DNA from: a virus
Taxonomy: Duplodnaviria; Caudoviricetes
Length of the DNA stretch: 64,000 bases
Virus record (IMG/VR): IMGVR_UViG_3300034410_000589
Span: 1 to 64,000 of that record
Reading direction: 5' to 3' (one strand)
Both the position numbers and the translations under genes were made by a program. Of the stretch, positions 22,249 through 25,453 are shown in pieces. How positions within the stretch are numbered: position 1 is the stretch's first letter; every line of letters starts with the position of its first letter. The notes beneath the pieces were generated by a model. That model saw only the letters and a list, made by a program, of their open reading frames with translations. It was not told where the DNA came from and searched no databases.

Positions 22249-23744
22249 TCGTTGTACCATTTATCTAAAAATTTATAGTGATTACCAAATAACTCTTTAG
22301 CACTATCAACTCTCACATCTTGTACTTTCATAAAATGTTCAACATATTTTTTTTGTTGTTCTGATAGCTCACATTTTTCATTTGGATATGCGCCGCCTGC
22401 ATGTAACATTGACCACCATTGAATACTACTAAACATACTACCAGGCGTAAAGAATATAAAGTCTTGCAATTTAGGATAATACTGACTCATCATCATTCTA
22501 GCATCTGCCGGAAGTTCGTCTAATGTCTTTGATCTTATTTCTTGCCAATATGGTGTATCATTTCTACTACTAAAATAATAGTGTGCATATATGAATGTTA
22601 GTATTTCTATACTCATTTCATAAAAGCCTCTATTAATCATTGACTTTGGTCCATCGTCCCATACGTTACCTGTGCGATTCATTAAGTCCGAGAAAGATGT
22701 AACTAATGCTGTAGTAAATGTAATACCTGTTGCTTCTAACGGTTCTATAAATCCAGCTGAAAGGCCCACAGCAAGAACATTTTTTACAGCAACATTTTCA
22801 TGCGAGCCTATACGCATTTTTAAATGATTTGCCGGAGCATCGTATTCGCCAATTGCTTCACGTAGTTCTGCTTCAGCTTCTTCGGGAGTAATATGTTTAG
22901 AACTATAAACGTATCCGTTACCAACACGATGATATGTAGGAATAGTCCATCTCCATCCAGCATTCATAGTAGTTGCTTTAGTATAAGGAAAACATTCTTC
23001 TTCCGGATTAGTATACTGTTTTGGCATAGCAACAGCACTATCGTTAAGTAGCCATTTGTTGTAACTTACATACGGTTCTTTTAAAGTTTTACCTAACAAC
23101 AAAGATTGAAATCCACTACAGTCTATATACAAGTCTCCAGTATACTCTTTGCCAGTTTCGTCTATAAGTTTAGTTATACCGGTTGCATCATTGCCAACTT
23201 GCGTAATCTTAGTATCAACGTAATCAATTCTATCTAATATTAATTTTTTAATTGTATCAATAATATCATATGCACTAAAATGTACAGCACCATAACTATC
23301 TAATCCTACATTAAAATTAATATCAGTTTCACCATCAATTTTTGTAGCGGTGTTATTCTTTGCTAATCTGTATGCAGGATGCCACTTCTTAAATTCACTA
23401 TACGGCTTATCAATAAAATATTTACTTACAGGAAGATGAGGTGCTGGTAAAACATTGTCAACTACATCATTGTCAACAAAATAAGATTCGTCATTCCAAC
23501 CTGTTAATTCTACACCATATTTAAACGATGCATTACTAGGCTTCATCCAGTCTTTGGCACTAATACCACACTTGTACAAGAACGATGCCGTAAGAGGTTG
23601 TGTACCTTCTCCAACACCAATTGGTCCTTTTGAAGCATCTTCAATTAGTTGTATTTCAACAGGGTCTACTAAATTATTAGTTAAGTAAGCAGCTGTAAGC
23701 CACCCGCTTGTGCCGCCTCCAAATATAACTATCTTTCTTACCAT
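22236..23744 (-). CDS. Flavin-dependent halogenase (tryptophan halogenase family)
   Basis: GGGTSG FAD motif, IGVGEGT, ASFKYG (catalytic-Lys position), WRWTIP (WxWxIP), FIEPLEATG. Confidence 0.88.
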   Translation of the reverse strand: MVRKIVIFGGGTSGWLTAAYLTNNLVDPVEIQLIEDASKGPIGVGEGTQPLTASFLYKCGISAKDWMKPSNASFKYGVELTGWNDESYFVDNDVVDNVLPAPHLPVSKYFIDKPYSEFKKWHPAYRLAKNNTATKIDGETDINFNVGLDSYGAVHFSAYDIIDTIKKLILDRIDYVDTKITQVGNDATGITKLIDETGKEYTGDLYIDCSGFQSLLLGKTLKEPYVSYNKWLLNDSAVAMPKQYTNPEEECFPYTKATTMNAGWRWTIPTYHRVGNGYVYSSKHITPEEAEAELREAIGEYDAPANHLKMRIGSHENVAVKNVLAVGLSAGFIEPLEATGITFTTALVTSFSDLMNRTGNVWDDGPKSMINRGFYEMSIEILTFIYAHYYFSSRNDTPYWQEIRSKTLDELPADARMMMSQYYPKLQDFIFFTPGSMFSSIQWWSMLHAGGAYPNEKCELSEQQKKYVEHFMKVQDVRVDSAKELFGNHYKFLDKWYNEWQE

Positions 23745-25453
23745 TCTACTTCCTCTATTATTGATATTAATTCTTCTTCTGGTTTAGCAAGTACAACAAC
23801 ATACAAACCATTCCACCAACTTTCTAAATCTTCTACGTCACACAATAGCATCTTTTCATATGCAACTTCAAAGCCTGCTTTGTTAATACCGATTCTTGCA
23901 CCTTCAACTACACCTTGCCAATTTGCATCATCAAAGATTAACACAGCCTCTTTAGCAAACACATTTTTATAATGTAGTACAGCCTGTTCAGTACTTGTTG
24001 CATCGTGTGGTCCGTCATAAAACCACATGTCTATCTTACCATTGTATTGTGACACATCTGCTTCAAATAGATCTTTATCAATTACTTCTACAGTATTTTT
24101 TTGTTTGTAGTTGTCTAGATTCTTTAAGAAATTTTCTTTTTCGTTGTGCGGCAATTTTGGCGCATTAGGGTCAGCAGGTTGTATATCACTTTGCCAATCG
24201 TCAATTGCTATAGCAGTTAAGTTATTATCTTTAATTGCTCCGCAGAATGTTGCACCCTGTGCTACTCCTACTTCCATATAGTGTGTAGAACCACTTGCAA
24301 TATGATTTAGTACTGTTTGTACCCTAGGACTTGTAAGTCCAGGTATACGTGTGTTTACAGTTGGCACACCACTTATTAATATGCTTTCTGCTACATGTTT
24401 AACTTTGTCTGTATGTTCAATTTTAGATTTAACTTTGTAAATATCGTCACAAAAATGACATTCCCAACAATCAAATTTACAATTTTTAATTTTCTTACGC
24501 CAAGCATCAATTGGCCTATCTTTAAGATTTGTACTTTCTAAATATTTTTCAAAGTTATCATATAGTAACGGTTCACCTGATGCCCAACGTTTTACAATGT
24601 TCATTGTTTCGTACAATCTACTTACAGCTTCACGACCGTGCATTTTAAAAACATCAATACCTAGTTCATCTAAGTATTCTTCCCAATCTTCTCTCCAAGG
24701 AGTTATATTAGCAGTCTTTAAATGTATACTTGGATCATCAACATCCCACTTAGGACAACTTACTCTACTAATAGGATTATTAAAATATTGAGGTTCTAGA
24801 CCTGCTCTAGTATTATTGTACTCAAAGTGTTCAACCATCATTGGACAGTTGCCTTTACATCCTTCGTTTGCTAACAAACTATAGTGTATATCTTTGCCAT
24901 AATTTTCTTTAATCCAAATCTTTGCTTCAAGTAATCTTTTTAACGTGTCTCTATCACGCATAAGATCCCTGTCAAGATTTATATAATTAAATCCGTACTT
25001 TGCTAAACTTACAATTTCTGATGCTACTCTAACATCTCGTAGTATAGTATTTTTTACGTATAATTCAGGAAATGCTTTTTGTATTTGTCCTGTTGCCATC
25101 CAATGTGTATGCGGAATAGTTGCAATACGCACACCAGCATCATATAATGGTTTAAAGTTTTTAATAAATGTATCTAAGTTTTTTTGACTAGGCGGTACTT
25201 GTATATTATTAAATGTAGCACTTACTGGCACACCTGTTTGCTGTTGTACAAACAATGCTTGATCAATTGCTAATTTATAGTCATCGTTTTGTACAAAGAT
25301 ATCGCCCATTGCGTCTTGGTCAAACGGCGGGATACGACTAGTAAAATATACATCTTTAATGTGATCTTTGTACTCTCTAATAAAATTAACAAACTCTACA
25401 TATTGTTCGTTTGATAGTTTAGGATTAAGAGGAATACTAAAAATTTTTCTCAT
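23738..25453 (-). CDS. U32-peptidase-like Fe-S domain fused to class I SAM methyltransferase (Methyltransf_24-like)
   Basis: N-terminal LLANEGCKGNCP...SC...FKMHGRE...CKFDCWECHFC; C-terminal YMEVGVAQGAT...DMWFYDGPH...IFDD. Confidence 0.7.
   Translation of the reverse strand: MRKIFSIPLNPKLSNEQYVEFVNFIREYKDHIKDVYFTSRIPPFDQDAMGDIFVQNDDYKLAIDQALFVQQQTGVPVSATFNNIQVPPSQKNLDTFIKNFKPLYDAGVRIATIPHTHWMATGQIQKAFPELYVKNTILRDVRVASEIVSLAKYGFNYINLDRDLMRDRDTLKRLLEAKIWIKENYGKDIHYSLLANEGCKGNCPMMVEHFEYNNTRAGLEPQYFNNPISRVSCPKWDVDDPSIHLKTANITPWREDWEEYLDELGIDVFKMHGREAVSRLYETMNIVKRWASGEPLLYDNFEKYLESTNLKDRPIDAWRKKIKNCKFDCWECHFCDDIYKVKSKIEHTDKVKHVAESILISGVPTVNTRIPGLTSPRVQTVLNHIASGSTHYMEVGVAQGATFCGAIKDNNLTAIAIDDWQSDIQPADPNAPKLPHNEKENFLKNLDNYKQKNTVEVIDKDLFEADVSQYNGKIDMWFYDGPHDATSTEQAVLHYKNVFAKEAVLIFDDANWQGVVEGARIGINKAGFEVAYEKMLLCDVEDLESWWNGLYVVVLAKPEEELISIIEEVEW

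Follow-up and report, generated by a model that had tools for sequence, protein, structure and literature searches.

A stretch of 64,000 nucleotides from a 73-kb virus record in IMG/VR (IMGVR_UViG_3300034410_000589), with gene content like that of a T4-like cyanomyovirus, encodes a protein that joins a barrel of the U32 superfamily to a class I methyltransferase. We refer to the whole stretch as the window and to this gene as the fusion gene (Table 1). We propose that its product is a two-domain tailoring enzyme, which would use iron-sulfur (Fe-S) chemistry and prephenate to hydroxylate an aromatic C-H and would then O-methylate the product with S-adenosylmethionine (SAM), and we put the probability of this reading at roughly one-half. 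There is good support for what the two domains are and for their coupling; the chemistry we infer from the family, the fusion, and the genomic context.

In the proposed mechanism, the cysteine groups of the N-terminal domain would hold iron-sulfur clusters, and the barrel would act without O2 to hydroxylate an aromatic or heteroaromatic ring at a C-H. The oxygen donor would be prephenate from the host, as in the characterized U32 systems. The fused domain, which is like those of COMT, CCoAOMT, or TrmR, would then methylate the new hydroxyl with SAM to give a methoxy group. A single polypeptide with two cysteine sites may stand in for the two subunits of UbiU-UbiV or TrhP1-TrhP2.

An initial annotation of the window, made from the sequence alone, had compared this gene to the U32 proteins and to the yrrM/yrrN/yrrO genes, and the literature bears out that background. 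U32 proteins bind a 4Fe-4S cluster through conserved cysteines and are needed for O2-independent hydroxylation (PMC6747719), and prephenate is the oxygen donor in U32-dependent hydroxylation (PMC10990095). The genes yrrM, yrrN, and yrrO form one operon that makes 5-methoxyuridine (mo5U), with TrhP and TrmR sharing an operon (PMC6599085).

The N-terminal domain belongs to the U32 superfamily

We modeled the N-terminal domain with AlphaFold2 (AF2), using an alignment of 74 sequences (predicted local distance difference test [pLDDT] 91.5; predicted template modeling score [pTM] 0.88). The model has eight strand/helix units that form a TIM barrel (about residues 1-295), with an insertion of ~60 residues separating strand 7 from strand 8, and it ends in a helical C-terminal extension. 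When we compared the model to the Protein Data Bank (PDB) with Foldseek, the best superposition was with the U32 protein Mk0906 (5d88; template modeling score 0.72 on the target, root-mean-square deviation [rmsd] 3.8). The remaining Foldseek matches were generic TIM barrels with an rmsd of about 8. An all-against-all comparison of 48,161 chains with VIA-align also ranked 5d88 first (Z 16.6, rmsd 3.2, 226/247 residues), and the next match, MTHFR (Z 13.1), was 3.5 Z units below it. In a viral structure library, the first named match outside the protein's own family was a "Peptidase" of Escherichia phage OLB35. Structure prediction was one of the checks put forward in the initial annotation, and it returned a TIM barrel whose best solved neighbor is a U32 protein. 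Although Mk0906 is the best structural neighbor, it is just 9% identical to the phage domain, which differs from it by the insertion between strands 7 and 8 and by the C-terminal extension with its group of four cysteines (Cys4).

Among sequence databases, NCBIfam gave nothing useful for the N-terminal domain, and searches of the PDB with phmmer and with a profile gave nothing significant, only weak TIM-barrel noise. More distant comparisons do connect the domain to U32. First, a 1.5-Mb Chloroflexota genome (G010) encodes five paralogs of 366-395 amino acids that match our N-domain profile at E = 1e-32 to 1e-36, keep all seven of its conserved cysteines, and also match the Pfam model for U32 (PF01136) at E = 5e-7 to 4e-4. 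Full-protein hmmscan scores for three of these paralogs were 24.0, 24.3, and 22.2 bits, as compared to a PF01136 cut-off of 22.4. Second, a six-frame search of the whole chromosome of E. coli K-12 with the N-domain profile found only trhP/yegQ (E = 1.8e-4) and rlhA/ydcP (E = 0.2), and both of these are U32 genes. Third, aligning the profile to eight canonical U32 sequences with hhalign gave a probability of 91.5% (E = 8.6e-7, with a confident core in strands 3-6); this probability depends on the trimming of the U32 alignment and was 62% if the alignment was poorly trimmed rather than cleaner. Fourth, the FKMHGRE motif on strand 8 aligns with the LKIEGR of TrhP and RlhA, and K-x-x-G-R is conserved, as in the KIEGR motif of U32. 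Because the fold, the bridging paralogs from G010, the search of E. coli, the hhalign comparison, and the strand 8 motif agree, we conclude that the N-terminal domain is a member of the U32 superfamily and forms a distinct subfamily that lies beyond Pfam's coverage.

Some of the paralogs in G010 (L108:4102-11248 and L109:5255-8742) are found directly after the large and FAD subunits of a molybdopterin hydroxylase of the xanthine dehydrogenase family. Known enzymes of the xanthine dehydrogenase family take their oxygen from water.

Two groups of conserved cysteines

All of the motifs that were quoted in the initial annotation are present in the translation of positions 23738-25453. Those in the cysteine-containing part are NEGCKGNCP (residues 196-204), VSCPKW (231-236), FKMHGRE (269-275), and CKFDCWECHFC (325-335); those in the methyltransferase part are MEVGVAQG (within 392-402), DGPH (within 478-484), and IFDD (within 506-512). 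The N-terminal domain has exactly seven cysteines, and all of them are conserved. In 16 viral homologs, C199, C203, C233, C325, C329, C332, and C335 are invariant, and so are K270, G273, and R274 from the strand 8 motif. Across the 74 representatives of clusters at 50% identity, C325, C329, C332, and C335 are still invariant, and conservation is 90% or higher for C199, C203, C233, K270, G273, and R274.

The canonical U32 motif, CX6CX15CX3/4C (or CX6CX16CX38C in UbiU), binds one 4Fe-4S cluster (PMC6747719). This motif is not present in the phage domain, where the pattern is C199-x3-C203-x29-C233 followed by C325-x3-C-x2-C-x2-C335. C199 and C233 fall on U32 cysteine columns only in relaxed, low-confidence alignments, and the Cys4 group sits in the helical C-terminal extension of the model. 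Given this conservation, we propose that the three-cysteine group at the mouth of the barrel is a putative Fe-S (or metal) site and that C325-C335 is a putative second Fe-S (or zinc) site.

The UbiU-UbiV heterodimer has one four-cysteine cluster in each subunit (PMC6747719). UbiU/UbiV and TrhP1/TrhP2 act as pairs; the phage protein is found as a single copy per genome, including in the complete genomes of the phages P-SSM4, S-CAM4, and RP31, and a search for a second U32-like copy within the window found none. By analogy, two predicted clusters in one chain may replace the heterodimer. The phage protein shares with UbiU-UbiV its superfamily, a cysteine-rich region after strand 7, and a pathway in which hydroxylation is followed by O-methylation. 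Unlike them, it is single-copy, it has groups of three and four cysteines, and it has no UbiT/SCP2 partner.

We also considered whether the protein might be a radical SAM enzyme. A CX3CX2C string does exist at residues 325-332, but we rejected this candidate because the string follows a complete eight-stranded barrel, because a fourth cysteine comes after it, and because there was no match to Radical_SAM from Pfam.

Another explanation for the cysteines is that they bind structural zinc in a non-redox protein, whose barrel might be, for example, a protease or collagenase that acts on glycine-rich fiber proteins. U32 proteins were first described as collagenases, there are glycine-rich and collagen-like proteins nearby, and C-x3-C-x2-C-x2-C could be a zinc site. 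However, the U32 proteins that have been characterized are Fe-S hydroxylation factors (PMC6747719, PMC10990095), and a fused methyltransferase has no obvious role in proteolysis, so we give this explanation very little credence.

The C-terminal domain is a class I methyltransferase

Residues 394-509 match Methyltransf_24 from Pfam (E = 1.9e-10) with a score of 42-44.5 bits, which is above the curated cut-off of 26.3. Motif I is YMEVGVAQGAT (residues 392-402), in which E394, G396, and G400 are invariant. An alignment of 20 homologs shows, besides an invariant motif I, the shared elements FYDGPHD, IFDDANW, and WWNG; D418, D480, H483, and D484 (the last three in FYDGPHD) and D508, D509, and N511 (in IFDDANW) are invariant.

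The AF2 model of this domain has a pLDDT of 89.6. Its five top structural matches are all O-methyltransferases, of the small, cation-dependent kind, with Z from 17.1 to 16.1: 5x7f from Mycobacterium tuberculosis (17.1), MeT1 (16.2), and three bacterial proteins (~16.1). Further matches include CCoAOMT (Z 15.3), TrmR from Bacillus subtilis (Z 15.1, rank ten), and SpnH (Z 14.9). In a profile search of the PDB, TrmR/YrrM was the sole methyltransferase to be matched, at a non-significant E of 0.06. There, D480 and D508 are aligned with aspartates of the matching TrmR motifs, D509 with an asparagine, and H483 with the lysine of FIDAAK; from the COMT/CCoAOMT family, we take these TrmR positions to be the metal ligands and the catalytic base. 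In short, the C-terminal domain has the Methyltransf_24 class I fold, and our best reading, if not a proven one, is that it is an O-methyltransferase of the COMT/TrmR type. The class I methyltransferase of the initial annotation is upheld by the match to Methyltransf_24, but a specifically TrmR-like enzyme is not, as the family is Methyltransf_24 and TrmR ranks tenth.

TrhP (YegQ) or TrhP1-TrhP2, together with TrmR (YrrM), resemble the phage protein in that a U32 barrel is coupled to a COMT-like O-methyltransferase. They also have the K..GR motif of strand 8 in common, and TrhP is the best match in E. coli for the N-domain profile. They differ in that the phage activities would be in one chain, the cysteine pattern is another one, and the phage methyltransferase belongs to Methyltransf_24. 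Neither the C-terminal domain of TrhP nor Methyltransf_3 (as in the TrmR ortholog) was matched in the phage protein by Pfam. A fusion of a hydroxylase to the O-methyltransferase for the next step does occur naturally, as TrhO-TrmR in Phytophthora and Phaeodactylum (PMC6599085), but there the hydroxylase is the O2-dependent, rhodanese-type TrhO and not a U32 protein.

The phage protein might likewise modify the wobble position of host or phage tRNAs, forming 5-hydroxyuridine (ho5U34) and then mo5U34, which would aid the decoding of AT-rich phage genes. Besides TrhP's rank in the search of E. coli and the match to TrmR in the profile search and among the structures, this idea draws on the label "O-methyltransferase YrrM" that the Joint Genome Institute (JGI) gives to several homologs, and on the precedents for the operon and the fusion (PMC6599085). 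We consider it distinctly improbable, however: Pfam identifies neither the C-terminal domain of TrhP nor another RNA-binding module, TrmR is not the top structural neighbor, the protein is acidic, a search for tRNA genes within the window found none, and the gene lies amid fiber and tailoring genes rather than translation genes.

The fusion is common in cyanophages

The initial annotation had raised the concern that the fusion might arise from read-through or misassembly, and this concern is put to rest by its distribution. In PHROGs, phrog_1458 spans residues 49-557 of the protein (E = 6.6e-168), which includes both domains, and the N-terminal domain alone corresponds to phrog_36869; both are labeled as having unknown function. 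With tblastn, we found matches in 126 phage records, nearly all of them myoviruses of Synechococcus or Prochlorococcus, and at least 80% of the query was covered in 121 of the 126. Isolates with the gene include P-SSM4, S-CAM4, S-RIM2, and Syn19. The N-terminal domain alone was found by tblastn in three Ralstonia jumbo phages. At 90% identity, a large protein database contained 2033 metagenomic clusters; among the closest 120, almost every protein is 550-575 amino acids long, and most carry PF13578.

A profile search of 1.84 billion representatives identified 467 clusters at 50% identity (E ≤ 1e-3), the majority of which are stand-alone proteins of 330-450 amino acids. When we scanned genome contigs, only two contigs from metagenome-assembled genomes matched, and these are probably phage DNA. 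In a quick maximum-likelihood tree, the fused forms cluster and the split forms are in neighboring lineages; this clustering is compatible with a single origin of the fusion.

Two other phage lineages (L112/L113 and L114/L115) have separate genes for the U32-like protein and for a homologous methyltransferase, and these genes are adjacent or overlap. Split adjacent genes together with fused forms make up a Rosetta-stone pattern, which supports the coupling of the two domains.

We noticed some variations within the family. Of two members of the fused clade, P0125 (553 amino acids) and P0126 (538 amino acids), one has DUF7483 in place of the methyltransferase (E = 1.3e-51), and the other ends in a methyltransferase-like region from which the glycine-rich SAM motif has been lost. 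The T4-like metagenomic phage L114 has two family members (positions 775-2121 and 7001-8152; 448 and 383 amino acids), which fall in the two deep clades of the tree and recall the UbiU/UbiV and TrhP1/TrhP2 pairs. Also, the GenBank coding sequences of PSSM4_035 from P-SSM4 (L082:5974-7692) and N231010_103 from S-CAM4 (L083:5980-7722) begin about 50 codons late. The open frame and the homology reach upstream of both annotated starts, and the omitted part corresponds to strand 1 and helix 1 of the barrel; phrog_1458 likewise begins only at residue 49.

Genomic context

One stand-alone homolog, P0140 (374 amino acids, 37% identity), lies 40 nt downstream of a complete operon for the pathway from shikimate to prephenate and is on the same strand, in a single metagenomic contig (locus L116:1-8125). 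In order, this operon encodes DAHP synthase, DHQ synthase, DHQ dehydratase, shikimate dehydrogenase/kinase, EPSP synthase, chorismate synthase, and chorismate mutase/prephenate dehydratase. Because prephenate is the oxygen donor for U32 proteins, this context supports U32-type chemistry, and it adds to the likeness to UbiU-UbiV, which use prephenate in this way. A HemN-like radical SAM gene follows P0140. We searched P-SSM4, S-CAM4, and RP31 for chorismate mutase (PF01817) and found that it is absent, so these phages would depend on the host's prephenate. As for the single polypeptide that hydroxylates and then O-methylates, as envisaged in the initial annotation, the split gene pairs and the neighbor of the prephenate operon speak for it, and the activity itself is suggested by analogy.

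In the window, the fusion gene is the start of a cassette that sits behind tail-fiber genes (Table 1). It is followed by four tightly packed genes: there are overlaps at the first three junctions, beginning with one of 7 nt between the stop of the fusion gene and the halogenase start, and a gap of 2 nt precedes the fourth gene. A reading frame of 136 amino acids lies between the two phrog_7084 genes. Iyer and colleagues described cyanophage clusters of halogenases and dioxygenases and proposed that they modify molecules derived from amino acids (PMC2938197). Their 2010 study noted a "dUTPase-fold protein with a conserved cysteine," to which the phrog_7084 pair may correspond. The initial annotation had also suggested that the neighboring 2-oxoglutarate (2OG) oxygenase is an aerobic counterpart of the U32-type step, with the two covering oxic and anoxic conditions, and we found nothing to support this pairing.

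Table 1. Features of the fusion gene and its surroundings in the window.
Feature	Positions	Strand	Remarks
Fusion reading frame: U32-like domain, linker, and methyltransferase domain	23738..25453	-	571 amino acids, ATG start
N-terminal U32-superfamily domain, residues 1-343	24425..25453	-	AF2 model and bridging homology
First cysteine group, NEGC199-x3-C203P ... SC233P, after strand 7	24746..24868	-	Conservation; low-confidence alignment to the U32 cysteine region
Strand 8 motif FKMHGRE, counterpart of U32 "KIEGR"	24629..24649	-	Conservation and alignment
Second cysteine group, C325-x3-C329-x2-C332-x2-C335	24449..24481	-	Invariant in 74/74 representatives
Linker, residues 344-372, lower-confidence helix	24338..24424	-	AF2 models
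Class I SAM methyltransferase domain, residues 373-558	23780..24337	-	Pfam Methyltransf_24, conservation, AF2
Hairpin of 16 bp between an A-tract (before) and U7 (after)	25470..25509	-	Free energy (dG) -18.7 kcal/mol, z -4.8
Flavin-dependent tryptophan-halogenase homolog	22236..23744	-	Present in 56/80 related loci
2OG-Fe(II) oxygenase (2OG-FeII_Oxy_5)	21673..22260	-	Overlaps the halogenase gene; present in 58/80 related loci
phrog_7084 paralogs, ~250 amino acids, cysteine-containing, conserved CPG motif	19766-20530 and 20936-21673	-	
phrog_1409 helical protein, 288 amino acids	26044..26910	-	Upstream of the fusion gene

Ahead of the fusion gene, 12 nt from its ATG, lies a hairpin that was not picked up by a simple terminator scan. 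It resembles a terminator or attenuator that would separate the fiber-side genes from the enzyme cassette. We also searched for the T4 late-promoter word TATAAATA and found none near the fusion gene.

The phrog_1409 protein is a candidate partner of the U32-like protein. Its gene lies upstream of the U32-like one not only in the window but also in P-SSM4 and S-CAM4, in the Ralstonia jumbo phage RP31, and in several phages from metagenomes. The two genes are directly adjacent in P-SSM4, S-CAM4, and RP31 and are one or two genes apart in the window and in the metagenomic phages L112 and L114. The phrog_1409 gene usually comes after fiber-like phrog_1417 proteins. Its product has conserved blocks near the N terminus (FV..QITPY.KLRQ) and the C terminus (YW..RMAKQAA.D...GRIG.GN.D.IL), and comparisons to Pfam, the PDB, and the ESM Atlas gave no lead.

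In three unrelated phage contexts, a membrane protein similar to DUF401/CitMHS, from a superfamily of anion transporters, is encoded 1-3 genes downstream of stand-alone or split U32-like genes (L081:7016-8056, L112:8743-9642, and L114:10043-10954). We did not find DUF401 near the fusion gene in cyanophages. It is purely speculative that this protein might transport prephenate or another dicarboxylate.

Weighing the proposed reaction and its substrate

Several observations weigh against a prephenate-dependent hydroxylation followed by O-methylation. Pfam had no match for residues 1-373, even at E = 10, and so PF01136 was absent; PF01136 did not match any of the 74 family representatives; and a six-frame search of the window's own record gave no match to it. 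The U32-type domain of the initial annotation is therefore borne out by its fold and remote homology, but not by a direct match to the Pfam model for U32 or by the canonical cysteine motif. Because the canonical motif is replaced, the first site has only three cysteines. The groups of cysteines could bind zinc. Among the structural neighbors of the methyltransferase domain, tRNA m1A58 methyltransferases (Z 16.0-15.0) are interleaved with the O-methyltransferases; there is no gap, and the scores fall gradually. The protein as a whole has a pI of 5.25, and its methyltransferase domain has a pI of 4.64. Oxygen-labile chemistry would be unexpected in an oxygenic host. No U32 enzyme has yet been shown to carry out hydroxylation in vitro (PMC10990095). 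A scan of metagenomes with P0140 found no relatives, and its location behind the prephenate operon is a single case. Finally, several of the stand-alone homologs lie amid genes for sugars or glycans, whose products include GT2, UDP-galactopyranose mutase, a TylF-like methyltransferase, a DegT aminotransferase, an SDR/epimerase, and a carbamoyltransferase.

These sugar-related neighbors keep alive the idea of a glycan pathway, in which the barrel would act on a sugar or nucleotide-sugar and a sugar O-methyltransferase would decorate fiber or capsid glycans or the host's surface polysaccharide. Two sugar O-methyltransferases, MeT1 and SpnH, are among the top structures for the C-terminal domain, and RB69p050, a related protein from phage RB69, was guessed to be a "sugar or heterocycle reductase" (PMC13326640). 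But action on sugars is not known for any member of U32, the seven conserved cysteines point to redox chemistry, and the prephenate-operon neighbor and the adjacent halogenase suit aromatic chemistry better, which makes a glycan pathway quite improbable.

Our first guess, by analogy, is that the substrate of the proposed hydroxylation would be the aromatic ring of a metabolite, a peptide, or a virion protein, because the fusion gene lies behind the tail-fiber genes in a tight cluster with genes for a flavin halogenase and a 2OG oxygenase. The main alternative is C5 of a pyrimidine in RNA, DNA, or a nucleotide. A pyrimidine fits the known U32 substrates and phage RB69, and a sugar fits some of the neighborhoods.

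RB69p050 (a "peptidase" at L119:2493-3662) is encoded inside the gene cluster for arabinosyl-5-hydroxycytosine and matches the N-domain profile (positions 59-351) at only 21.5 bits. It is another phage protein with the U32 fold; strand 7 is again followed by cysteines, strand 8 carries FKVSGR, and a Cys4 group is present in the C-terminal part. It differs in having four cysteines after strand 7 and in having no methyltransferase domain. A 2026 paper lists it as 5d88-like (PMC13326640, Table 1). We view RB69p050 as a lead towards nucleic-acid chemistry and not as evidence for it. By analogy, it could be an O2-independent route to 5-hydroxycytosine (5hoC) beside the O2-dependent ThyA homolog.

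The corresponding function for the fusion protein would be the modification of DNA or nucleotides: C5 of a pyrimidine would be hydroxylated and O-methylated, and the resulting 5-methoxypyrimidine would protect the phage DNA. There is a parallel in the 5hoC of RB69, which is later glycosylated and whose arabinosyl cluster includes RB69p050 with its C-terminal Cys4, and both RlhA and TrhP work at C5 of pyrimidines (PMC5727448, PMC6599085). However, 5hoC in RB69 is made by a ThyA homolog (PMC13326640). The cyanophage gene is also located in a region of structural genes and not amid genes for replication or nucleotides. Methoxypyrimidines are not known to us from the DNA of cyanophages, in a literature that we did not search exhaustively, and this counts against such a function as well. 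Overall, we consider the modification of DNA to be unlikely.

Implications

U32 is a large and still poorly understood family of enzymes. The superfamily itself was already known, and what is new here is the subfamily and the fusion architecture; in a search of the literature, we found no paper that links U32 to cyanophages. In its most specific form, which we hold more tentatively than the general proposal, the protein would be the first viral Fe-S hydroxylase that depends on prephenate, with two clusters in one chain and its own fused O-methyltransferase, and it would place a methoxy group on an aromatic target. This target might possibly be C5 of a pyrimidine in phage DNA or tRNA, or a ring of the tryptophan or tyrosine type, in a fiber protein or a metabolite, that the neighboring halogenase would modify as well.

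Placing the N-terminal domain in U32 gives a concrete and testable function to a common cyanophage gene whose N-domain family has no Pfam model, and it would extend U32-type chemistry to the viruses of oxygenic phototrophs. The operon ahead of P0140 provides an independent link between the family and prephenate, the organic oxygen donor that was newly found. In a one-polypeptide system, methylation could serve both to trap the hydroxylated product and to signal that it had formed. If our proposal is true, then a soluble, single-chain fusion that is abundant in oxic surface oceans could give the field its missing in vitro assay for U32 enzymes.

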